From IMG/VR virus record IMGVR_UViG_3300028898_000107: a DNA stretch of 52,349 nucleotides; one strand, given 5' to 3'. The position numbers were made by a program, and so were the translations under genes. Source of the stretch: a virus. Positions 8,032 to 41,924 of this stretch are shown here, piece after piece. Below the pieces are notes generated by a model. That model did no database searches and was not told the DNA's origin. It saw only the letters and a program-made list of their open reading frames with translations. Numbering within the stretch: position 1 is the first letter of the stretch; the number at the start of each line of letters is the position of its first letter.

Positions 8032-8576
8032 GATAAGCTCCTCAGTAACTCCCGGATGGAGGAGGCTTCCTCTGGTGTCTCCCAAGCCCATCCTCCTTGA
8101 GGCTTCTCAGCATGTCCACGGAGGAGCTTACGGGCCTTTGCAGGCTCTATCCCCAGTTCCTCACAGATACCCGCCAGGGTAAGAGCTCCGGTGGCCCCTG
8201 TGCCCTTCATAGGCCTCTCGGGAGTTTCTTCCTCAAGGACCGTTCCCAGCCCCAGGAAGACCCGAAGTTCACGCTCGGCCTTAGGGCTCTTGGACAGTGT
8301 GGAATCCCACATGACCTGAGCCACTCGAAGCGGGTCCTGATTTATGGGAACGAGGGGGTAGTAGATCCTCTTGACCGCAGGGTCACTGACTTCACCCTCG
8401 TTGACTTTGTAGATCCGATACTCTCCCTCTTCTTTAGGGACCTTGATGACATCGATGATCCCGTCTTCCATGTTCAGGAAGAAAGATCCTGCGGCTCCCT
8501 CCCGAACCATCAGGTGGACCCGAGTCTTGTCCCTCATGAAGACTCTGGAGGTGAAGTTGAGCTTTAGGGCTCCCAT
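8028..8576 (-). CDS. hypothetical protein with the same C-terminal module as the 5017..5460 product
   Basis: AGGAG precedes ATG 8576. The C-terminus LTLAGICEELGIEPAKARKLLRGHAEKPQGGWAWETPEEASSIRELL aligns with IGLEALAKEFKTTPVALRRKLRNSEVSKPDSGVWAWKDGSRELAAVRKLL. Confidence 0.65.
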   Translation of the reverse strand: MGALKLNFTSRVFMRDKTRVHLMVREGAAGSFFLNMEDGIIDVIKVPKEEGEYRIYKVNEGEVSDPAVKRIYYPLVPINQDPLRVAQVMWDSTLSKSPKAERELRVFLGLGTVLEEETPERPMKGTGATGALTLAGICEELGIEPAKARKLLRGHAEKPQGGWAWETPEEASSIRELLRSLS

Positions 8577-15545: not shown

Positions 15546-16372
15546 GTTCTCTCCTTTATCAATAACCGATAGTCATTCTCGAAGCAGTGGAGGGAGGTGG
15601 TGTGCATGGTGAAGAACCCAGGATTAACCAAACTCCACCCGTTAGGATCTCGCTTCCTGAGCTCATCCAGGACCCAGAGAAGAAGACGAACCGTCAAGTA
15701 GATGTCATCTCGAAAATGACGAACTAGATCACAGCTTCGGAGCCAGTAGGTAACGTGGAGGTAGTTTCTGCGACGGATGAAATGGTACCCCAGGGAGCAC
15801 GGAACCCGGCCACCTCCTGCCCCTCCCGTATCCTCAGGAAAGAAGATGGGGAGATAGGCTTGACGTGTATGTGGCTCCCTGAGCAGGAGACTCACCACAT
15901 CATTGAGATCCCCGTAGGATTCTCGTATCCCCCGGTGCCCAGGATGAAAGGAGTTCTCCAGGATCTCTGCGCACTCAATCGGATTTTGGGTGGGGCCAAG
16001 AGTACCGGCGAACTTGGGCCAGTATCTCTCTGCATAGGAGTGGTTGAACATACCGCTCTCGTCCAGGAACTTGGCCGCGGACTTTCCATAGGGCCAGTTC
16101 TCCCATTCAGTTCCAGGATTGAGTGGGTATCCACAGACCCTCTCCTGGAAGTGATTGTCTGCCCAGGGGAGGTTCGGCTTGATGTCCCCCCCTAAGACCG
16201 AGAGGTCTTCCGTGTATACCTGAGCCTTAAGGGTATAGTTGAGCAGCTCCCAGGTCCTCATCTCAGGCTTCGAGGAAATGTCCACCCCCTGCCAACTCTC
16301 GGTGTGAACCGATTGACCGATGGCAGCTAAGGAATTCACAGCCCGGTCTATAGCTAATCCGAAGAGGCTCAT
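15542..16372 (-). CDS. thymidylate synthase (ThyA)/dCMP-hydroxymethylase-fold enzyme, paralog 1
   Basis: HTRQAYLPIFFPED...RVPCSLGYHFIRRRNYLHVTYWLRSCDLVRHFRDDIY...HTTSLHCFEND aligns by eye with the ThyA core (RRIIVSAW..PCHAFFQFY..QRSCDVFLGLPFN..THLY). ATG 16372 is ATGA-coupled. Confidence 0.65.
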   Translation of the reverse strand: MSLFGLAIDRAVNSLAAIGQSVHTESWQGVDISSKPEMRTWELLNYTLKAQVYTEDLSVLGGDIKPNLPWADNHFQERVCGYPLNPGTEWENWPYGKSAAKFLDESGMFNHSYAERYWPKFAGTLGPTQNPIECAEILENSFHPGHRGIRESYGDLNDVVSLLLREPHTRQAYLPIFFPEDTGGAGGGRVPCSLGYHFIRRRNYLHVTYWLRSCDLVRHFRDDIYLTVRLLLWVLDELRKRDPNGWSLVNPGFFTMHTTSLHCFENDYRLLIKERT

Positions 16373-17295
16373 TTGATCCACCCCATTAGGACGAACATAG
16401 GGACCTTGAACCCTGCGGCATTCCTGTGGCCTCCCCCTCCGAAGTGCTTAGCAATCTCACTCACGTCATATTCACCATTGGACCGAATTGAACAGTGAGC
16501 CTCATCTCCGCTCTGGGGAAGATACCAGACGAGGCCGAAGGTCCCAGAGGAATCGGCCAACTCATGACCAAGTTCGGACTGGTGCAGGCTGGCATTGACG
16601 GCCAGCCCATGAACCTCTAGAGAGTTGCGTTCATCATATGGGTCTCCACAGTGCTTCCAGATACAGCACCCTCTGGCCAGCTTCGCCATCGACTTCACGT
16701 TCGAATCCTGAGCGGCCAGAATGGCACGTCCGTCTGTCTTAATGAGGCTCAGGAGAGGGAGGTTCAACAATGGCCTCCATTGCTCGAAACTCCAGGGCCT
16801 CAGGGAGCTCAGTCCAACGTGCAATTCCTTACTGCCCTCCAGCTTGAATTGCCAGCGATCTCGATCGTCAATGTGACGGATCAGCATCGGAATCTCTACT
16901 CCGAGGTGAAAGTGCTCCCAAGCGAGTAATGCCCCAGAGCGGTTGTCATCCAGGGTAATGAGATGGGGGGAGTACGGAGACCCCGAGTAGATCATCCCTT
17001 TCTTGTACTCACCGCACCACATCTCGAAGGCGGTCTTGTGATGGTCCAGCCAGACCACTCGATGGGCGGATTGGAAGACCTTGTCCATGATAGGCTTACA
17101 GAAACTGAAATCCAGGATGAGGACTTCTCTTCCTTGAACTAAGGCCTCCACTGCAGGTTCATCTCCTTCTGCCCAATCCCCTTCCCCGTAGGACATGGGT
17201 AGGTAATCCGCCTCCTCCCCCAACTTCATCCAAGCCGCGAAGGCTGCCCCAAATCCGTCCGTACACTTGTCGTGATAGATCACTAATGGTCTCAT
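16369..17295 (-). CDS. DHH/DHHA1-family phosphoesterase
   Basis: N-terminal YHDKCTDGFGAA, DHH-like LDHH, C-terminal GGGHRNAAGF. Confidence 0.75.
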   Translation of the reverse strand: MRPLVIYHDKCTDGFGAAFAAWMKLGEEADYLPMSYGEGDWAEGDEPAVEALVQGREVLILDFSFCKPIMDKVFQSAHRVVWLDHHKTAFEMWCGEYKKGMIYSGSPYSPHLITLDDNRSGALLAWEHFHLGVEIPMLIRHIDDRDRWQFKLEGSKELHVGLSSLRPWSFEQWRPLLNLPLLSLIKTDGRAILAAQDSNVKSMAKLARGCCIWKHCGDPYDERNSLEVHGLAVNASLHQSELGHELADSSGTFGLVWYLPQSGDEAHCSIRSNGEYDVSEIAKHFGGGGHRNAAGFKVPMFVLMGWIK

Positions 17296-28981: not shown

Positions 28982-29054
28982 CGCGGAGTAGCTCAGTCGG
29001 AAGAGCGGGAGACTCATAATCTCTAGGTCATCGGTTCAAGTCCGGTCTCCGCAA
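28982..29054 (+). tRNA. tRNA-Met (CAT), initiator-like acceptor and T arm
   Basis: Manual cloverleaf: CGCGGAG-TA-GCTC-AGTCGGAA-GAGC-G-GGAGA-CTCATAA-TCTCT-AGGTC-ATCGG-TTCAAGT-CCGGT-CTCCGCA-A. C1:A72 mismatch. Followed by CCC, so the CCA end is not fully encoded. Confidence 0.85.
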
Positions 29055-29195
29055 CCCCCTAACAGGTGAAAGCTCGGCCATAAGCTGAGGGCTAATCGTC
29101 CACGGTGCAGCGGAAGGTATCTCCCCCTTCTGGCTACATCTGGGCGTTGTCAAGTCGGAGATTAGCACCGGCCACCTGACCCTATCGAGGAAACC

Positions 29196-30590
29196 ATGTC
29201 GAAGAAGAGCATCGTTCGGACGACTCAAGCTGCCCTGACCCAGGAGAAGAAGATGAGGGCGAAGGATAGCTTCGTCAACTTCGCTCACAATCTGGGCATC
29301 GGAGCTGACAACCCTATGACCTCTTCATCATATGGTTTCAACCCGATCACCCGCAACAGAACGCTGCTCGAGTGGGTTCATCGCGGTTCCTGGCTAGGCG
29401 GAGTGGCCATTGACGTAGTGGCCGACGATATGACCCGAGCTGGGGTCTCTCACAAGGGTGAACTCAAGCCAGGAACCATCGAGGATCTCGAGGAAGAGGC
29501 AGTTCGCCTCGGAGTTTGGGAGACCCTCAACGACTCTGTCAAGTGGAGTCGGTTGTATGGTGGCTGCATCGCAGTGATGCTGATAGATGGCCAGGACCTG
29601 AGCACACCGCTTCGTCTCAACACCATTCGCAAAGGGCAGTTCTGTGGACTGATGACGCTTGACCGCTGGATGGTCGAGCCCAGCCTCAACGACCTGGTCA
29701 CCGAGCTCGGTCCTAACCTGGGCCTGCCGAAGTACTACACCGTCACCGCTCAAGCTCCTGCCTTATCCCGTCAGAAAATCCACTATAGCCGATGCATCCG
29801 GCTAGAAGGCATCAAGCTGCCATACTGGCAGAGACTGATGGAGAACCTGTGGGGCTTGTCTGAGCTCGAACGTCTGTATGACCGGATGATCGCTTTCGAC
29901 TCGGCTACCACTGGCGCTGCTCAGCTGGTTTACAAGTCCTATATCCGGACTTACAAGATCAAGGATATGAGGGAGGTCGTAGCCACGGGTGGACCTGCTG
30001 CCGAAGGACTGGTCAAGTATGTGGACATGATGCGTCGCTTCCAAGGGATCGAGGGAATGACCTTGATCGATGCTGAAGACAGTATGGAGTCCTCCACCCA
30101 CGGTGCCTTCTCTGGTCTATCGGATGCCCTGGTGCAATTCGGCCAGCAGCTCTCTGGGGCGTTGCAGATCCCGTTGGTTCGACTGTTCGGGCAGAGCCCC
30201 GCAGGCTTCAGCTCTGGCGACTCTGACCTGCGCAATTACTACGACAACATCAAGCAGAAGCAAGAGAAGCAGCTGCGGGTGGGAGTCACGAAGGTCTATC
30301 GAGCACTGGCCGCATCCAGGGGGGTTGACCTGCCGGACGGATACCGACTCGAGTTCAATTCCCTGTGGCAACTCAATGATGAGCAGAAGGCCGCTATCGC
30401 CTCGAGCACCTCGAGTGCCATCTCTGCTGTCGAAGGTTCTGGGGTGATCGACCGTGCAACGGCCCTGAAGGAGCTCAAGCAGTGCAGCACGGTCACGAAC
30501 ATCTTCTCGAACATTACCGACGAAATGATCCGCGAGGCGGAAGGCGAAGGTCCTCCAATACCAGATGATGTGCTCCCTACTGACGAATGA
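29196..30590 (+). CDS. portal protein (DUF1073-like)
   Basis: 464 aa. It is the first large gene after the terminase genes, with an acidic C-terminus. Confidence 0.75.
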   Translation: MSKKSIVRTTQAALTQEKKMRAKDSFVNFAHNLGIGADNPMTSSSYGFNPITRNRTLLEWVHRGSWLGGVAIDVVADDMTRAGVSHKGELKPGTIEDLEEEAVRLGVWETLNDSVKWSRLYGGCIAVMLIDGQDLSTPLRLNTIRKGQFCGLMTLDRWMVEPSLNDLVTELGPNLGLPKYYTVTAQAPALSRQKIHYSRCIRLEGIKLPYWQRLMENLWGLSELERLYDRMIAFDSATTGAAQLVYKSYIRTYKIKDMREVVATGGPAAEGLVKYVDMMRRFQGIEGMTLIDAEDSMESSTHGAFSGLSDALVQFGQQLSGALQIPLVRLFGQSPAGFSSGDSDLRNYYDNIKQKQEKQLRVGVTKVYRALAASRGVDLPDGYRLEFNSLWQLNDEQKAAIASSTSSAISAVEGSGVIDRATALKELKQCSTVTNIFSNITDEMIREAEGEGPPIPDDVLPTDE

Positions 30591-31341
30591 TGCTTCAACC
30601 GCAGAGCTTCGACGGTTAGCCCGTCAACGGTTCGCGAAGGCGCATCGGCTCGAAGCCTCCTACCTGCGGCAACTGCAGGGAGTGGTTCGGCAGATCGACG
30701 CCATCGTCAAAGGGATGGCCCCGCAGGGAGTGGTTCATGATCTGCCTGGGATACAGCGAGTCCTCAACCAATACTCGGAGACCATCCGTCCTTGGGCGAA
30801 GTCTGTGGCTGAGAGGATTCTGGCCGAGATCTCGCGCAGAGATGAGGCGGCCTGGCATGAGTTAGGGAAGGAGACCGGACGAGCCCTGCGCAAGGAGATC
30901 CAGTCTGCTCCCACAGGAGAGGCGCTGCGGATCCTCCTTGACGAGCAAGTGACGTTGATCACCAGCCTGCCGACAGAAGCCGGCCAGAGGGTGCATAGGC
31001 TGACCCTGGAGGCGATCGCCGACAGTAGTCGGGCGAAGGAGATCGCGAAGGACATTCTGCGAACCGGAAAGGTCACAGAGAGCCGTGCAAAGCTGATAGC
31101 TCGGACCGAGGTCGCCAGGACTGCAGCAGGTCTCACCCAAGTTCGAGCTGAGCATGTGGGGATTGAGGCCTATATTTGGAGAACCAGTGGAGACGTGGAT
31201 GTTCGAGACAGCCATAAGAAAATGAATGGAAAAGTAGTTCTTTATAGTCAACCTCCAGAAGTAGACCCGGGTAAGTTTTACCATGCTGGAACCTTTCCCA
31301 ATTGTAGATGTTATCAAGAACCCATCCTCCCGAATGAGTAG
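30565..31341 (+). CDS. Mu F-like / SPP1 gp7-like head morphogenesis protein
   Basis: ARTEVARTAAG...DVRDSHKKMNGKVV...FPNCRCYQEPI motifs. Confidence 0.8.
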   Translation: MMCSLLTNDASTAELRRLARQRFAKAHRLEASYLRQLQGVVRQIDAIVKGMAPQGVVHDLPGIQRVLNQYSETIRPWAKSVAERILAEISRRDEAAWHELGKETGRALRKEIQSAPTGEALRILLDEQVTLITSLPTEAGQRVHRLTLEAIADSSRAKEIAKDILRTGKVTESRAKLIARTEVARTAAGLTQVRAEHVGIEAYIWRTSGDVDVRDSHKKMNGKVVLYSQPPEVDPGKFYHAGTFPNCRCYQEPILPNE

Positions 31342-31972
31342 AGTCTCCTTCTTGTATAAGATAGATTTTCCAAATGGGAAAGGTTATATTGGAATATCCA
31401 TAGACCCTCTTCGACGATGGAAGACCCATCTGAGGAGGGCAAAGAGGGAATCATCCCTTCCAGTGCACAATGCCTTACGTAAATTTCCCGAGGCCGCTTT
31501 CAAAGTGCTCGCTAAAGGTGAACTGGAGTATATACAAGAATTAGAGATTAAGGCCATTGCTCTGTTTGAAACCCTAGTCCCGAAGGGATATAATTTGGGA
31601 CTCGGCGGAACCGTTGGGCCTATGTTGAACCCGCTAACCTCAGCAAAAGTCTCAGCTTCTAAGATGGGACACTTCGTCTCTGAGGAGACTAGGAGAAAGC
31701 AGTCATTAGCACAACTGGCCAGATTTGCTAAGCCTGGGGCCATCTCCGAGGAGACCCGAAGAAAGCTCTGTGGAAGAGTCCCTCCCCTAAAAGGAAAGAC
31801 TCATTCTGAAGAAGCTAAGGATAAAATAAGGGCCAAAAGGGCGCTTCAGGTTATGTCGGGAGAGTCTCAACGTCAACTGAATATACGACGTAGAGAATGG
31901 ATAGCTAGCACGGGATTTACTGGCTGCTTTCAGAAAATCACCAAGGCTATGATGGACTCAACCGATGAATAA
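31334..31972 (+). CDS. GIY-YIG homing endonuclease with NUMOD3-like repeats
   Basis: FLYKIDFPNGKGYIGIS...R...H...ALRKF...E (GIY-YIG core). Three SEETRRK/SEEAKDK repeats. Lower GC. Overlaps both flanking genes. Confidence 0.8.
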   Translation: MSRVSFLYKIDFPNGKGYIGISIDPLRRWKTHLRRAKRESSLPVHNALRKFPEAAFKVLAKGELEYIQELEIKAIALFETLVPKGYNLGLGGTVGPMLNPLTSAKVSASKMGHFVSEETRRKQSLAQLARFAKPGAISEETRRKLCGRVPPLKGKTHSEEAKDKIRAKRALQVMSGESQRQLNIRRREWIASTGFTGCFQKITKAMMDSTDE

Positions 31973-33560
31973 AGCTGCCGGAATACTCTTCATAGCCAAT
32001 GGCAAAGCTCTGCTACTCAAGCGAGGCGATGGCTACTGGGGTCTACCTGGTGGACACCTCGAGCCTGGCGAGACCGACCGAGAAGCTGCCATCCGGGAAA
32101 CGTTCGAGGAGTGCCAGTATCGAGTGAGAGACCCGATCGAGAGACACTCGGTTGCAATCTCACCAGAGGTGAGCTTCACCACGTTCCTGTGTGAAGTACC
32201 CGAAGAGTTCCGGCCAGTGCTGAACCACGAGCACACTGCTTACCTGTGGACGTCAGAGGTACCGGACTCCACACACCCGATGTTGACCAATATACTGCGA
32301 GGGATTATGATCAAACGTCATTCGAGAGATGCAACCAATCACCTGGGAGAGAAGACCTACCGCACCTATGCCGCTTGGCGGGCTGCCTGTAAGGTAGCCA
32401 ATCCCTCTGTACGGTTCGAGGGCGACAGCGAGATCTGCCATGCCCTGCCGAACGTCGGTGAGTGGGACGGTGAGACCGGAGTCGTGTACGCACAGAAGGC
32501 GAAGGATGCTCTCTCTGAGGCCGATAAGCAGGCTCGTATTCAACGGCTATCCAACCGAATGGGTGTATCCAAGAGCGTAGCTGAGAAAGAGCTAATCGCC
32601 GAGGAATGGGATGAGGCCGAGGCTGCTCTCAATCTACGGTCGATGGTCGGAGGAAAAGGGTTGGCGGGAAAGAGGTCGGAGGACGCCTCCCCTAAGGCAG
32701 AGGCCTTAAAGAGGAAGATTGAAGAGCTCTCAGGGTCTTTAGGGCTTGCTCGTGAAAAACGAAAGATGAAGACTGGGGGAGCCCAACACTATCAGTCACA
32801 AAGAGAAATGGATCTCTCCAAAAAGATCAGTGAGCTACGTCAAGAACTCCATCTCTTGGAATCCGCCCGAGACTCTTCTGACCTCGAGAAGACCTACACC
32901 AGTGAATTCCTCAAGCGGTTTGATGTGGCCAAGATGAAGCGTCTGGGCTACCAGGTAGTCTCCGAGGCGAAGAATCCCGAAGGCACCTACATGGTGACCT
33001 ATCGCAAGCGGTCGAAGGATGCTGTGGAGGGCGTGGTCTACAAGACCCTGGCCGAAGCAAAGGTCGCAGCTGAGCGGACTGGCGGCAAGGTCGAGCAGAA
33101 GTTCGACACGTCCAAGGAACCTCCCTACAATACCTACTGGATAGTGAAGCCCGCAGCGAAGGACGCCGGGACCTTCAAGGAGGAAGAACATCCCCGCGAG
33201 GGAGGCAAATTCACTTCGAAAGGCGGATCATCGAAGACCGAGAAGATGGCTACTGGTCCTACCGAGTCCGATGTCAAGAGGGTCACTGGAGAATATAACC
33301 AGGCGCTGGCCAGCTATCGCCAGGCCCACAAGGAAATGGAGGGAGCCCTGCAGGAAGCGGCGAAGGGGTTCTCCAAAGACCCAAGTGAGCGGTGGAATCA
33401 AGTCGTGAAGTTCAAGAAGGACTTCCTCAAACCCCATGAGCAGAAGCTCAACAAGGCGGAGAAGAAGGCGAACGAGGCTATCACCGCTCTGAGCAAAGCC
33501 GACGGGAAGAACCGCCCATTGGTCGGGTTCAAAGGGACTCCAGGAGGCCGCTTTGGATAG
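31965..33560 (+). CDS. large protein with N-terminal NUDIX hydrolase domain and long charged C-terminal region
   Basis: NUDIX box GGHLEPGETDREAAIRETFEECQY. C-terminal KDAGTFKEEEHPREGGKFTSKGG motif. 531 aa. Confidence 0.75.
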   Translation: MNKAAGILFIANGKALLLKRGDGYWGLPGGHLEPGETDREAAIRETFEECQYRVRDPIERHSVAISPEVSFTTFLCEVPEEFRPVLNHEHTAYLWTSEVPDSTHPMLTNILRGIMIKRHSRDATNHLGEKTYRTYAAWRAACKVANPSVRFEGDSEICHALPNVGEWDGETGVVYAQKAKDALSEADKQARIQRLSNRMGVSKSVAEKELIAEEWDEAEAALNLRSMVGGKGLAGKRSEDASPKAEALKRKIEELSGSLGLAREKRKMKTGGAQHYQSQREMDLSKKISELRQELHLLESARDSSDLEKTYTSEFLKRFDVAKMKRLGYQVVSEAKNPEGTYMVTYRKRSKDAVEGVVYKTLAEAKVAAERTGGKVEQKFDTSKEPPYNTYWIVKPAAKDAGTFKEEEHPREGGKFTSKGGSSKTEKMATGPTESDVKRVTGEYNQALASYRQAHKEMEGALQEAAKGFSKDPSERWNQVVKFKKDFLKPHEQKLNKAEKKANEAITALSKADGKNRPLVGFKGTPGGRFG

Positions 33561-33915
33561 AGGAGTACTTGGTCTTTTTCTGGTCGCCCTTCTTCTGGTC
33601 GTCGTAGTGGCCGCTTATCCGTCCGAGAGACCCATCTCAGGCCTCACTCTGGAGGTGGTCACCGCCGAGGAAGGAAAGGCCAAGGGGTTATCTGGTCGGG
33701 ACTTTCTTCCTGAGCACCAGGGGATGCTGTTCGTCTGGCAAGAGGTCGCCCAGAGGTGTATGTGGGGAAAGGATCTCAGGTTCGATATAGACCTGCTGTT
33801 CCTAGACGGTAAAGGTACTTTGGTTCGTCATGAGCCTCTGGATGCCGGAGACCCTTCGCCTCACTGTCATGAGGCACAATACGTGTTGGAAGTAAATCGA
33901 GGAGAGCCTGTATGA
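33553..33915 (+). CDS. DUF192-like protein with N-terminal membrane anchor
   Basis: AGGAGG lies 5 nt before TTG 33553. LGLFLVALLLVVVVAAY anchor. KGLSGRDFLPEHQGMLFVW...DIDLLFLD...AQYVLEVNRG pattern. Confidence 0.6.
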   Translation: MDRGVLGLFLVALLLVVVVAAYPSERPISGLTLEVVTAEEGKAKGLSGRDFLPEHQGMLFVWQEVAQRCMWGKDLRFDIDLLFLDGKGTLVRHEPLDAGDPSPHCHEAQYVLEVNRGEPV

Positions 33916-34325
33916 AGCTGCTTCAACTGTCCGTCCTATCCATGGTCATCTGCCTCCTTCTGGCGGCATCCGGGATCAAGTTGGGATACCAGTCGGCCGA
34001 GGCTTACTATCCGACTGTTCAAACTGAAGCCTTCACCCCTACGGGTATGGCCACCCTGACTGTGAGCCAAGTATCCTCGTCCGTTCCTCTGGCCTCTACG
34101 GGGGCGAGTTCTCCCGCTGCTACCATTGCGGTCATTCAGAACCTGGGCGCTAAGACCGCGTACGTGGCCCTGGGGGCCGCCTCGAACGTGACTGCTACGG
34201 TCTCTGGCGGGTTCCCCATCATGGCCTCCCAAAAGGCCTCTTTGACGGTCCGTGACTCGAAATATCTGGCAGCTATCGCTGCTACTGGCGAATCCACAGT
34301 ACTGTCTGTGGCTACGGGGTACTAA
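33912..34325 (+). CDS. exported beta-rich protein (signal peptide)
   Basis: ATGA-coupled. MKLLQLSVLSMVICLLLAASG signal-like N-terminus. S/T/A/V-rich. Confidence 0.65.
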   Translation: MKLLQLSVLSMVICLLLAASGIKLGYQSAEAYYPTVQTEAFTPTGMATLTVSQVSSSVPLASTGASSPAATIAVIQNLGAKTAYVALGAASNVTATVSGGFPIMASQKASLTVRDSKYLAAIAATGESTVLSVATGY

Positions 34326-34326
34326 G

Positions 34327-35229
34327 ATGAGACACTTCCTTCTTCTGTTGATCCTGTGGGCCTCGCAGGCTGGCGCATATCAGGTCTTCCAGGGGCCTCC
34401 GGCCGGTAAGACCTCAGACACTGCGGTTCTTGTGACCCCTACTGGGTCCACAGTGGTCACAGAAGAGGGGTTGGTAGGAACCATTCCCTACCATGATCTC
34501 ATCCGTCTTGGGAAGATCCCAGGGCATTCCCCATTCCGAGGATTCGGCCAACGCCCATCGTTGAGTACTGTGGCCACCGGAGACGATATCTGGACAGGAA
34601 CGGCTACGACCATTCCCATACCTGATCAAACTACGGGGGATGCCCTCACCTGCGTCTCCACTTCGGCAGCGGATGCGTCTCCCTCTGGGGCAAATGTCCG
34701 TAAGATTGACCTGCACTACCTGACCCTGGCCGGAGCAGAGGCCCATGCTAACATCTCCTTGAATGGAACCACTCCGGTCTCTACGGGATTGACGGGAGTT
34801 CGGCACATCCAGTACATTCACTCAGAGGAAACCTCTGGGTATGGGGTAGCTGCGGCTGGGGTCATTACCTGCTACCGAACGGGAGACGCCGCTCGGGTCT
34901 ATGCCCAGATCCCCATCGGGGCTAACGTCTCCCTGAACTCCCAGCGAATGGTACCGGCTGGGAAGACGTTCTACATGAACTATATCTCGGTGTCCGGAGC
35001 CAGTGGAAAACCCTTGTCCGTGAGGCTGAGAGCCACTAATGACTTCGAGGGCCTTCTCACCCCTGGGATATTCATCTTCAATGAGGTCTACTTCCTACAG
35101 GATTCTGTGACTTCCTTAAACCTCAGCATACCGCGAAAGTTCCCGGCCCTGAGTATCATCAAGGCAACCGTCTACTCCACCCAGGCGGGAGGAGATGTGT
35201 CCGTCTCCTATGGCGGTTGGATAGAGTAA
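34327..35229 (+). CDS. exported protein (signal peptide), about 300 aa
   Basis: ATG 34327 lies 1 nt after the previous stop. MRHFLLLLILWASQAGA/YQ is a canonical signal peptide. The track start 34252 overlaps the upstream gene. Confidence 0.65.
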   Translation: MRHFLLLLILWASQAGAYQVFQGPPAGKTSDTAVLVTPTGSTVVTEEGLVGTIPYHDLIRLGKIPGHSPFRGFGQRPSLSTVATGDDIWTGTATTIPIPDQTTGDALTCVSTSAADASPSGANVRKIDLHYLTLAGAEAHANISLNGTTPVSTGLTGVRHIQYIHSEETSGYGVAAAGVITCYRTGDAARVYAQIPIGANVSLNSQRMVPAGKTFYMNYISVSGASGKPLSVRLRATNDFEGLLTPGIFIFNEVYFLQDSVTSLNLSIPRKFPALSIIKATVYSTQAGGDVSVSYGGWIE

Positions 35230-35295
35230 GCTTGCATCACGGCGAATCTGCGCCGCCGTATCAAGAGCGCAGAAATCGACGAGAAGGAACCTAAT

Positions 35296-35748
35296 ATGAA
35301 AAAGCTTCTGCAACTCTTTGCCCTGGTGGCGGCGATGGGTCTGGGCCTGTTCGCCAGTGCTTATGCTGAGACCTACCCAGTCACCAATCCGACCTATATC
35401 CCGAATGCTCGTGGCACAGCTTTCACCGTGGCCTCGAACGTGGCCGCTACTCCCCTGACTCTCAACGGTATCGGTACCGTGGCCTTGCAGCTGTCGGGTA
35501 CTTGCACCGGCCTCCAAGGGCGGATGCAAGGTACTGTGGATGATACGAACTATGTCACTCTCAACATGTACCCGTACAACGCCACCTTAGCTGCTTCGGC
35601 GGTTACTTCCGTTAGCGGTACGACTGGCACCTGGGTGATGAACACCGCGGGATACTCGAAGGTTCGTATGAATAATACGGGGGTGTCTACTTCCACCTGT
35701 GTTGGTCGTCTGGTCGGTTCGTCGGCAGCCTTCGCCCTACCACGATAG
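35296..35748 (+). CDS. exported protein (signal peptide), two Cys
   Basis: MKKLLQLFALVAAMGLGLFASAYA/ETYP is a canonical signal peptide with an AxA site. Its N-terminus resembles that of the 33912 product. Confidence 0.7.
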   Translation: MKKLLQLFALVAAMGLGLFASAYAETYPVTNPTYIPNARGTAFTVASNVAATPLTLNGIGTVALQLSGTCTGLQGRMQGTVDDTNYVTLNMYPYNATLAASAVTSVSGTTGTWVMNTAGYSKVRMNNTGVSTSTCVGRLVGSSAAFALPR

Positions 35749-35806
35749 TACTCCGGCCGTAGCCTCTACTGGGGGCTACCACAGCAGTATTAACATAGGA
35801 GACAGT

Positions 35807-37159
35807 ATGAACTTCCATACCATCGAAAAGCTTGGGCCTAAGCAGAGCCTGACCCCAGAAGGATTCCTGCTATGCGAAGAGGTCCCCATCGCCCGCACGG
35901 GGATGCTGATCTATGGACCGAATGAGACCCCGATCAAGGCCGGAGCTGAAGGGCTAGTCAAGATCCACCGTGAGGAGGAAGAGGTCTTCCGGCCAGAGTC
36001 CATCGCCAGTGCCCAAGGAAAGCCAGTCACGGATGATCACCCAGACGAGGATGTCAACCCGGAGAACTGGAAAGAACTAGCCGTCGGAACTGCTCTCAAT
36101 GTTCGAAGAGGGGTAGGGGCGATGGACGACCTGTTATTGGCCGACTTCCTGATCACCTCTAAGGAAGGAATCGAGGCCATTCGCAGCGGAAGGAAGACAG
36201 AGGTCTCCTGTGGTTATGAAGCGGACTACGAGGAAATCTCTGAAGGGGTAGGAAGGCAGAAGAATATCATCATCAATCATATCGCGTTGGTCGAGAATGG
36301 TCGCTGTGGCCCGCGATGTGCAGTAGGCGACCGGAACTCAACTAAGGAGGTAAACATGGCAGCAAAGAAAGGAAACAAATTCCTTGATACCCTGATGAAG
36401 GCGTTCAAGGCAAAGGACGCCGAGGAGGTCGAGCAGTTGGCTCAAGACCTCGAGACTGTGAAAGGCGGGGAAGAAGGCGACACCCACATCCACATCCACA
36501 ACGGAAATGGTGAGGCCAGGCCGGAGGTTCTGGATGAAGAAGGACAACGCATCCGGTTCACCGACGACTTGATCCAGGAACACATTGACCGCAATGATGC
36601 TGAACATGCTGAGATGCGAGCCGAGATCGAGACTCTCAAGGAGATGGTCGCTCAACTCTCTGGCAATTCCGAAGGTGCTACCGACGGAGATCCGGATGAG
36701 CAGACCGAACAGGCCCTGCGTGATGAAGCACCGGAGGGCATGGAAGAGCAGGCGGCTAAGGCCAAGGACTCTGCCTATCTGGCTGACTCCTTCCAGGATG
36801 CGGCTTCTCAGGCCGAGATCTTGGTTCCTGGCGTGAAGATCCCGGTCTTCGATGGTGCGGCTAAGCCGACTCAATCCCTGAAGAAGCTGTGCCACTTCCG
36901 TCGCGGCGTTCTGGACTTGGCCTATAACCAGCCGGCAACTCGTGGCATCATCGACGAGCTGTTGGACGGCAAGTCTTTGGACACCAAGTCCATGACCTGC
37001 GATGCCATCCGCACGATGTTCCGGTCGGCGGCAGCGATGAAGAGGGCCTTGAACAACCAGCCGGCAGGACGCACCAGCGACCAGTCCGGAGCGGCAAAAG
37101 GTCCCGTGACCCTGGCGGAGCTCAACCGTCGCAATTCCGAGCACTGGAATCTCGGCTAA
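35807..37159 (+). CDS. DUF2213-like prohead protease/scaffold fusion with nested internal start at 36356
   Basis: TAGGAG precedes ATG 35807. GKPVTDDHP...VSCGYEADY pattern in the N-terminal half. In-frame ATG 36356 is preceded by AAGGAGG. The C-terminal half is acidic and helical. Confidence 0.7.
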   Translation: MNFHTIEKLGPKQSLTPEGFLLCEEVPIARTGMLIYGPNETPIKAGAEGLVKIHREEEEVFRPESIASAQGKPVTDDHPDEDVNPENWKELAVGTALNVRRGVGAMDDLLLADFLITSKEGIEAIRSGRKTEVSCGYEADYEEISEGVGRQKNIIINHIALVENGRCGPRCAVGDRNSTKEVNMAAKKGNKFLDTLMKAFKAKDAEEVEQLAQDLETVKGGEEGDTHIHIHNGNGEARPEVLDEEGQRIRFTDDLIQEHIDRNDAEHAEMRAEIETLKEMVAQLSGNSEGATDGDPDEQTEQALRDEAPEGMEEQAAKAKDSAYLADSFQDAASQAEILVPGVKIPVFDGAAKPTQSLKKLCHFRRGVLDLAYNQPATRGIIDELLDGKSLDTKSMTCDAIRTMFRSAAAMKRALNNQPAGRTSDQSGAAKGPVTLAELNRRNSEHWNLG

Positions 37160-39336: not shown

Positions 39337-39543
39337 ATGCCGTTGATACAAAGTGGTTCTGAGAAAGCCCTGAGGGAAAATATCGCCACCGAGATCTCAC
39401 ACGGCAAGCCTCCCAAGCAGGCTGTGGCTATCGCCCACTCCATCCAACGGGCCAATGACGGCCCGTTGGATAACCTGCCGGAGTCGGTCTCACTGGCCTC
39501 TATCAATGAGATGAACCGGAAGTACTGGGAAACTCCAATATGA
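39337..39543 (+). CDS. small hypothetical protein
   Basis: AAGGAGG precedes ATG 39337. GSEKALRENIATEISHGKPPKQAVAIAHSI. Confidence 0.6.
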   Translation: MPLIQSGSEKALRENIATEISHGKPPKQAVAIAHSIQRANDGPLDNLPESVSLASINEMNRKYWETPI

Positions 39544-39758
39544 CCAAGCGAATACATATCCACCTCAAGAGCGGTCTTCAATCTACTAAGGACGCTAATC
39601 CGGACGGAACGGTAAGCCCTGATGAAGATCGTCGAGAGGCTGAGCTTACCCAAAAGGCTAAAAAGCTATTCTCTGACCTAAAGACCGAGGCTTATGCCAT
39701 CGGGGGTCCTTTTCGAGGCCCGGGCATTTGGGGAAGAATAAAAAGGACTCTTCAATGA
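39540..39758 (+). CDS. small 'IHIHL' family protein, paralog 1
   Basis: MTKRIHIHLKSGLQSTKDA... ATGA-coupled on both sides. Confidence 0.6.
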   Translation: MTKRIHIHLKSGLQSTKDANPDGTVSPDEDRREAELTQKAKKLFSDLKTEAYAIGGPFRGPGIWGRIKRTLQ

Positions 39759-40237: not shown

Positions 40238-40432
40238 ATGGCCAAGCATATACACGTTCATGTAGGTAAGACCCAAGATGCACTGCCCTCTGCCCAAGTG
40301 TCCGAAGCCATTCGAAAGGCCGAGGCAATAATTCACCGTCTCAAGAATGTTACCCCTGGGACGGATTTGGCAGACGGGGACTTTCGAGAAGGGTACAAAG
40401 CCTTGACTGCGGCTTATAACTGGATTGTCTAG
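40238..40432 (+). CDS. small 'IHIHL' family protein, paralog 2
   Basis: MAKHIHVHVGKTQDA... Confidence 0.6.
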   Translation: MAKHIHVHVGKTQDALPSAQVSEAIRKAEAIIHRLKNVTPGTDLADGDFREGYKALTAAYNWIV

Positions 40433-41711: not shown

Positions 41712-41924
41712 ATGATTAAAAATATACATATTCACCTTGGCAATACGAAGGACGCTGATGTTCGGGTGGACCATATCTCATCGGGAGTTGCTGCTGCAAA
41801 GCGAACAATCCAAGATGGTGAGCGGGCTTTGGCAAAAGGGGATCTCGAATTGGCCGGACGATACTTTATCTCTGCTTCGGTCACCCTTGAAAACATCGGC
41901 AAGCAAGCTAAATCATCGGCGTAA
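41712..41924 (+). CDS. small 'IHIHL' family protein, paralog 3
   Basis: MIKNIHIHLGNTKDA... The start overlaps the previous stop (TAAATG). Confidence 0.6.
   Translation: MIKNIHIHLGNTKDADVRVDHISSGVAAAKRTIQDGERALAKGDLELAGRYFISASVTLENIGKQAKSSA

Follow-up and report, generated by a model that had tools for sequence, protein, structure and literature searches.

Why does a phage place an enzyme of the NUDIX hydrolase family at the front of a long, charged protein in the middle of its head-assembly genes? The question is raised by a 52,349-nt stretch of viral DNA (IMG/VR virus record IMGVR_UViG_3300028898_000107), referred to here in its full length as the window. The gene concerned joins a NUDIX domain to a tail, here termed the carrier:

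31965..33560, plus strand: NUDIX-carrier fusion gene, an open reading frame (ORF) with an ATG start encoding 531 amino acids (aa), 59 kDa, isoelectric point (pI) 9.1

On balance, a comparison of sequences makes it probable that the product is cargo held inside the phage head, consisting of an active NUDIX enzyme on a mosaic carrier from the slot behind the MuF head-morphogenesis gene; the protein may be processed at its junctions, and the enzyme would pass into the next host. The protein is present in identical copy on 5 contigs. The fusion is not an assembly artefact, because an independent fused homologue (P0002) occurs in a syntenic locus, L001.

The enzyme part of the protein occupies the N-terminus:

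31965..32318, plus strand: NUDIX domain, aa 1-118 (Pfam PF00293; PHROG 1198, E=1.5e-19)
32052-32120, plus strand: NUDIX box GHLEPGETDREAAIRETFEECQY, aa 30-52

The Pfam match covers aa 4-96 (E=9.8e-14; 51.9 bits versus a cut-off of 21.1) and is the sole Pfam family above its cut-off in the protein, DUF4200 falling below. The catalytic motif is intact. The box, G30-HLEPG-E36-TDREAAI-R44-E45-T-F-E48-E49-C-Q-Y52, matches GX5EX7REUXEEXGU with R44, E45, E48 and E49 present, and deviates only at its two weakest, non-catalytic positions (T46 for U and Q51 for G). A first-pass annotation of the window, made from the letters alone, had placed a bona fide NUDIX box at the head of a 531-aa protein, and this description stands. 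Of the 27 NUDIX-bearing proteins examined, which span all fusion types, 25 have the strict core pattern G-x5-E-x7-RE-x2-EE, and the clade alignment shows next to no variation at R44, E45, E48 and E49; this conservation argues for an active enzyme in the window protein. In the AlphaFold2 (AF2) model the predicted local distance difference test (pLDDT) score of aa 1-118 is mostly >90. A fold search of the PDB with the domain returned 253 matches at E<=1e-3, and the best 50 of the 253 are NUDIX enzymes.

Related loci reveal how enzyme and carrier came together. In locus L003, MuF, a NUDIX of 121 aa and a carrier of 313 aa (P0004) are each encoded by a gene of their own, with the start of the carrier gene overlapping the stop of the NUDIX gene. 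Locus L001 encodes the fused NUDIX-carrier P0002, with its modules in another order. From the split version in L003 and the fused version in L001 it follows that two adjacent genes have merged in the window. A stop codon would have been lost, joining a minimal NUDIX pyrophosphohydrolase gene to the post-MuF carrier gene beside it. A possible trace of the former boundary lies at the junction:

32298..32309, plus strand: in-frame Shine-Dalgarno-like GAGGG and ATG (Met115) at the NUDIX/carrier junction, read from the sequence

The carrier gene of L003 starts at the position matching the Met115 junction, and the fused homologue in L001 has the same arrangement (GAGGA-6nt-ATG, 8333-8350). Met115 may be a relic or an active internal start, and a nested tail-only product is possible. 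The idea of a nested product parallels the annotated nested protease/scaffold pair gp26/gp25 of Burkholderia phage BcepB1A. Carriers that lack NUDIX also occur. P0065 (L008) lies directly after MuF, between MuF and the gene for DUF2213, a scaffold-type protein, and P0100 (L132) lies three genes downstream of MuF.

In its build, the carrier is a mosaic. The tail is rich in lysine (12.5%), alanine (11.1%) and glutamate (10.6%) and has a pI of 9.4, consistent with the first-pass description of a Lys/Glu-rich remainder. The repeated (K/R/E)DA tripeptides picked out in that description are also more frequent than composition predicts. The pattern [KRE]D[AS] occurs in the protein at aa 121, 180, 239, 302, 351 and 399, six times versus 0.99 expected (P ~2e-4 from 20000 shuffles that preserve the composition of the tail), a pattern selected after the sequence had been inspected. 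The tripeptides are the boundaries of modules shuffled between homologues, and the tail is a string of ~50-60-aa modules, each closing with x-K-D-A, that differ in order and number among P0002, P0003, P0004 and P0126. The tail contains the following parts:

32334..32510, plus strand: module M1, aa 124-182, a small unannotated domain of ~60 aa
32511..33167, plus strand: modules M2-M5, aa 183-401, delimited by AF2 secondary structure, each closing with x[KRE]D[AS]
33264..33503, plus strand: C-terminal helical hairpin, aa 434-513, AF2 pLDDT 90-96

M2 and M3 are predicted by AF2 to be helical hairpins, and M4 and M5 small beta-rich modules. The C-terminal hairpin is kept in P0003 and P0100. A reading of [KRE]D[AS] as a protease site common to all head proteins is speculative: the DUF2213 protein of the window contains two sites, in KAKDA and AKAKDS, which is not an enrichment (P=0.33), and the capsid protein contains none.

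M1 has the consensus NHLGExEYxTYxxWKxACKxxxPxVxFEGDKDICxAxxGVGEWDGxxGxVY and, judged by its distribution among sequences, is a widespread unannotated small domain. A query with the whole tail found 233 representative clusters at E<=1e-3, and among the matches listed nearly all align to M1. Neither Pfam nor PHROGs has a family over M1 or any of the other tail modules. The AF2 model of M1, built with 76 sequences, has pLDDT >90 at model residues 11-60 and a beta-alpha-4beta fold, for which a Foldseek search of the PDB found no neighbour (best E=1.4). In BFVD at E<=0.001 the sole M1 match was a 498-aa protein, equal in length to gp281 of phage PA5oct. M1 is found in PA5oct gp281, whose gene adjoins the terminase gene and whose record carries a flag for electrospray ionization tandem mass spectrometry (ESI-MS/MS), making it a virion protein. 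A tblastn search of phage genomes with the tail gave only M1 matches in PA5oct-like jumbo phages and, again for M1, one weak match (E=0.01) to a DarB-like polyvalent protein. A word-indexed protein search with the tail returned only 3 proteins, the candidate list being saturated by charged low-complexity words.

A further link between the carrier and phage heads is a short motif that follows the modules:

33159..33212, plus strand: junction motif KDAGTFKEEEHPREGGKF, aa 399-416, followed by a Gly/Ser-rich disordered linker

Residues 400-424 have AF2 pLDDT <50 and are disordered. A scan of IMG/VR with a degenerate DNA pattern for FxExxHPRxxxGKF matched at least >120 loci, and among the matches listed the motif is in frame in 125 of the 125 ORFs recovered. 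The recovered proteins have an extended consensus, DAxFxExxHPRxxDGKF-GSGGGG, in which DA before F, D at +3 and +5, and GSGGGG after the motif were unspecified by the pattern; conservation outside the specified positions rules out chance. Domain searches of 80 proteins with this HPR motif identified head domains (portal in 28, DUF2213 in 3, MuF in 1) and enzymatic or other partners, namely topoisomerase IB (8), LPD3 (7), NUDIX (7), Zeta toxin (6) and ADP-ribosyltransferase (ART; 5), along with AAA_33, InPase, PBECR1, GNAT and 2H. The motif sits between domains, as in portal-InPase-HPR-ART and HPR-TopoIB-HPR-NUDIX-ART. It also heads small free-standing proteins, falling among their first 30 residues in 27 of 118 cases. 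The first-pass annotation had assigned part of this motif to multi-domain MuF-associated proteins of phages and conjugative elements. For phages the assignment is sound: the motif is real and common at junctions in multi-enzyme proteins linked to portal, DUF2213 or MuF. Because in many phages the motif ties an enzyme cargo to head proteins, the window protein is probably loaded into the capsid. A tblastn search of phages and plasmids with a 34-aa motif peptide found nothing, and so no plasmid match for the suggested tie to conjugative elements, probably due to low-complexity masking and the short query. No description of the HPR..GKF motif was found in two Aravind-group papers or elsewhere in the literature searched.

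Up to six copies of the motif occur per protein, the extreme being L043 (46-7400 of IMGVR_UViG_3300012157_000006). There the gene directly after MuF encodes a protein of 1351 aa in which HPR..GKF recurs six times, one copy every ~150-270 aa, and the next gene encodes a 2H phosphoesterase together with an XkdF-type S78 prohead protease. By sequence, L043 looks like a polyprotein-style cargo array beside a likely protease.

The NUDIX clade is itself recurrently fused to head proteins. It forms the C-terminus of portal proteins (P0015, P0022, PHROG 15528 and Bcep1/Bcep781/Bcep43/BcepNY3) and the N-terminus of DUF2213 proteins (P0005-P0013 and others). The latter include gp26 of BcepB1A, whose annotation is head maturation protease and whose gene has a scaffold gene nested in it. 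In L070, L076, L081 and L086, NUDIX is joined via the HPR motif to topoisomerase IB. NUDIX and ART are combined in one polypeptide in P0011, L056, L072 and L100, the last with the architecture HPR-ART-NUDIX-DUF2213. Free-standing relatives are found as well. Burkholderia phage BCSR129 has a free NUDIX gene directly 3' of a "minor capsid protein" gene, and Ralstonia phage PQ43W encodes a related NUDIX among tail and neck genes. The proposal of a packaged protein, put forward in the first-pass annotation, is thus well supported as a candidacy by comparative evidence, as the clade is fused to portal, DUF2213 and ART.

Two lines of evidence bear on the substrate. NUDIX is repeatedly paired with ART, and therefore ADP-ribose chemistry is a likely target; the pairing points to ADP-ribose or a compound derived from nicotinamide adenine dinucleotide (NAD) as the substrate. 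The structural neighbours point to dinucleoside polyphosphates. By sequence and by modelled fold, the nearest neighbours in the PDB are the diadenosine hexaphosphate (Ap6A) hydrolase Ndx1 and diadenosine tetraphosphate (Ap4A) hydrolases. Like Ndx1 of Thermus thermophilus (PDB 1vc8) and Ap4A hydrolases, the window domain is a minimal domain of ~120-130 aa (sequence E=1.3e-8; fold E=3e-8; template modelling score ~0.7 on the target), but the identity of only 23-27% is too distant to transfer the substrate. In tblastn searches, nudE-annotated genes of T4-like phages match aa 4-93 at 39% identity, and any placement of the window NUDIX in the T4 NudE clade would depend on these weak matches (E ~5e-6). 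Among residues C-terminal to the box that might be related to substrate, the candidate proline, P67, varies within the clade.

A second candidate signal is found at the start of carrier relatives. Stand-alone relatives of the carrier start with MxKHIHIHL, followed after a few residues by K-x-K-D-A. The window phage encodes three small proteins with such a leader, among its neck genes:

39540..39758, plus strand: small ORF of 72 aa, leader MTKRIHIHL...STKDA
40238..40432, plus strand: small ORF of 64 aa, leader MAKHIHVHVGKTQDA
41712..41924, plus strand: small ORF of 70 aa, leader MIKNIHIHLGNTKDA

Their common leader is M-x-K-x-IHIHL...(K/Q)DA. A homologue of the 72-aa ORF with the same leader is present in IMG/VR loci L143, L144, L148, L151 and L152. 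The leader was found in 23 IMG/VR loci, with several genes per phage and up to five consecutive genes in L143. It directly joins the HPR motif in P0100, L142 and L145; P0100 is a minimal protein of 146 aa comprising leader, HPR motif and hairpin.

The gene lies within a terminase-portal-MuF-scaffold-capsid module whose synteny is kept in L001 and L003:

29196..30590, plus strand: portal (Pfam Phage_portal_3, E=4e-97)
30565..31341, plus strand: short MuF head-morphogenesis protein, 258 aa, which defines the post-MuF slot (Pfam Phage_Mu_F, E=7e-17; PHROG 324, E=2e-63)
31283..31972, plus strand: GIY-YIG/NUMOD3 homing endonuclease (PHROG 314, E=2.7e-27; Pfam NUMOD3 and GIY-YIG)
33553-33915, plus strand: DUF192 gene with a hydrophobic N-terminus resembling a signal peptide or membrane anchor (Pfam and ORF)
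33912-34325, plus strand: ORF with a hydrophobic N-terminus
34252-35229, plus strand: ORF with a hydrophobic N-terminus
35296-35748, plus strand: ORF with a hydrophobic N-terminus
35699..37159, plus strand: DUF2213/Pa193_gp24-type scaffold with a putative prohead protease domain (Pfam, E=6e-50; PHROG 530, "head maturation protease")

The first-pass annotation had the gene directly after portal and MuF and before scaffold and capsid. Its place inside the head module holds, but the immediate neighbours differ. A free-standing homing endonuclease gene separates MuF from the NUDIX gene, and on the other side the DUF2213 scaffold gene is reached only after four genes (33553-35748) whose hydrophobic N-termini all resemble signal peptides or membrane anchors. 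The endonuclease gene overlaps the NUDIX start by 8 nt and, if its start is the ATG at 31334, the MuF stop by another 8 nt; it is absent from the MuF-NUDIX position in L001 and L003. A group I intron was considered at this site and dropped, as an Rfam search around the endonuclease gene found no intron or other RNA except a tRNA-Met. This tRNA-Met (anticodon CAT) is located at 28982-29056 (plus strand), between the large terminase and portal genes. The four genes with hydrophobic N-termini are kept in L001 and partly in L003; four such N-termini in succession are unusual for a head-assembly cluster.

The window phage is a myovirus that encodes DNA polymerase, helicase and primase. Ten other large ORFs of the window were scanned and proved to be replication and tail/baseplate genes, with no integrase among them. 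When the head region (12.7 kb) was compared with isolated phages by megablast, no close relative was found. The replication module contains a gene for a DHH-family phosphoesterase (16369-17295, minus strand; PHROG 4771, E=4e-62), the second nucleotide phosphoesterase of the phage.

How might such a protein work as head cargo? The carrier can be described as beads on a string, in which M1, hairpins and beta modules with x-K-D-A junctions are followed by HPR..GKF, a Gly-rich linker and the C-terminal hairpin. During assembly, the carrier part would bring the enzyme into the procapsid, where the DUF2213 protease-scaffold may cut the K-D-A junctions, the HPR linker, or both. The enzyme would then exit with the DNA and hydrolyse an adenine-nucleotide pyrophosphate early in infection. 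Candidate substrates are ADP-ribose or NAD-derived signals, dinucleoside polyphosphates and 5' RNA caps. Packaging, cleavage, ejection and substrate are what we infer for the window protein from its architecture and its relatives.

Several observations weigh against head-internal cargo. [KRE]D[AS] is absent from the major capsid protein. The window fusion lacks an N-terminal HIHIHL leader and retains only a remnant, MIKRHSRDA. Its HPR motif has a spacer of two residues (HPR-EG-GKF) versus three in the widespread form, and because the spacer is one residue shorter the exact DNA pattern misses the window copy. The alignable homologues P0003, P0011, P0065 and P0069 have the three-residue form; the flanks of the window motif are the same as in the canonical motif, and it aligns with the copies in P0003, P0065 and P0069. 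The study of phage Pa193 terms its DUF2213 protein a scaffold and never mentions a protease (PMC11456595). All matches of the NUDIX domain to NCBIfam equivalogs were far below cut-off and point to no one substrate class. Finally, position in the head module is by itself weak evidence, because the homing endonuclease and the four genes with hydrophobic N-termini are also there.

A broader form of the cargo idea can be put forward only tentatively. The leader, the x-K-D-A junction and DAxFxExxHPRxxDGKF-GGGG might together be a widespread modular code for head loading and processing, with enzymes interchangeable on anchors or as tagged free genes. The window protein would then be a polyprotein, possibly also made as a nested Met115 tail-only product, and would be cut into free NUDIX and several small internal peptides that are ejected into the host. 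The enzymes covered would be NUDIX, ART, topoisomerase IB, Zeta kinase, InPase and nucleases.

The strongest alternative, which seems unlikely, is that the protein is an internal scaffold or core component whose tail assembles the head or condenses DNA, while NUDIX acts without delivery in the producing cell or the maturing head, for example by clearing ADP-ribose, dinucleoside polyphosphates (ApnA) or damaged nucleotides. The basic tail (pI 9.4) would suit such a role, and the tail consists mostly of helical hairpins, like the coat-binding motifs of scaffolds (the helix-turn-helix of Pa193 gp24). Fusions of NUDIX to the DUF2213 scaffold/protease itself are frequent, and the usual fate of a scaffold is expulsion or degradation, not injection. 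However, the HPR motif ties similar carriers to ART, Zeta toxin, topoisomerase IB and PBECR nucleases, all sensible as host-directed effectors, and the fusions to the portal C-terminus put NUDIX in the mature virion.

It is more doubtful still that the protein is a late cytoplasmic enzyme, akin to a moron or accessory product, which acts outside the particle and owes its carrier to a neutral accident. In favour of this reading, a homing endonuclease gene and genes for proteins with hydrophobic N-termini are accommodated in the same region, L003 has its free-standing 121-aa NUDIX gene, and the related NUDIX of PQ43W lies among tail and neck genes. Against an accident, the fusion arose independently in the window and in P0002, the clade has repeatedly been joined to portal, DUF2213 and HPR-motif proteins, and the window protein is identical on 5 contigs.

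A MuF-associated polymorphic toxin of the kind described by Jamet et al. (2017), serving interbacterial competition with DUF192 or another small downstream gene as immunity, is very improbable. The post-MuF position, the Zeta toxin and ART domains in HPR-motif context, and the conserved DUF192 gene that comes next all recall such systems. In the polymorphic toxins the N-terminal MuF domain is part of the toxin, whereas in the window it is in a separate 258-aa protein, with the homing endonuclease gene between. Moreover, NUDIX hydrolases are not known as toxins, MuF toxins are described in temperate phages whereas the ten other large ORFs scanned included no integrase, and two genes separate DUF192 from the carrier in L003. 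A catalytically dead, nucleotide-binding NUDIX module is just as improbable. The two deviating, non-catalytic box positions (T46 for a hydrophobic residue and Q51 for G) speak for it; against it, the protein has R44, E45, E48 and E49, which hardly vary in the clade, and the NUDIX fold is predicted with pLDDT >90.

Several known systems offer parallels. The internal proteins IPI-III and Alt of phage T4 have a capsid-targeting sequence that is cut by the prohead protease. By analogy, unrelated small proteins of the window phage have a common leader and a short junction; unlike the T4 proteins, to which there is no sequence similarity, the window fusion has no leader. Packaging of T4 Alt is cited in the study that introduced the concept of polyvalent proteins (Iyer et al., J Bacteriol 2017, PMC5512222). 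Like polyvalent proteins, the window protein is a mosaic of modules shuffled among relatives and lies near portal, MuF and terminase genes, and its HPR motif is common to proteins with the LPD3, ART-PolyVal, PBECR1 and InPase domains defined in that study. Unlike them, it is small (531 aa), has one recognisable enzymatic domain, M1 being of no predicted activity, and matches no LPD Pfam family. Pa193 gp24 offers a further comparison, as a putative scaffold remnant inside the capsid (PMC11456595).

The idea of a head-packaged Nudix is not new. Iyer et al. (2022, Viruses; PMC9503650) already predicted that Nudix proteins in late gene clusters, or fused to MuF, portal or a capsid-processing peptidase, are packaged and injected. 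The window NUDIX resembles these in being a late, head-cluster gene of a myovirus from a clade fused to portal and DUF2213 and co-occurring with ART. It differs in that its partner is a mosaic post-MuF carrier, and not MuF, portal or a peptidase. Literature searches with the motif string and for phage Nudix in anti-defence found no experimental work on a virion Nudix. We found no account of module M1, of the K-D-A junctions, of the family of HIHIHL leaders or of how widely the HPR..GKF motif occurs.

Beyond T4, P1 and N4, little is known of which proteins phages bring into cells and how these proteins are loaded. The locus analysed here is a compact test case, with one enzyme, one carrier, natural split and fused versions, and three short candidate signals. 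If the HPR motif and the HIHIHL leader are loading or processing signals, they would allow large-scale discovery of packaged effectors in metagenomes and the loading of chosen cargo into phage particles.

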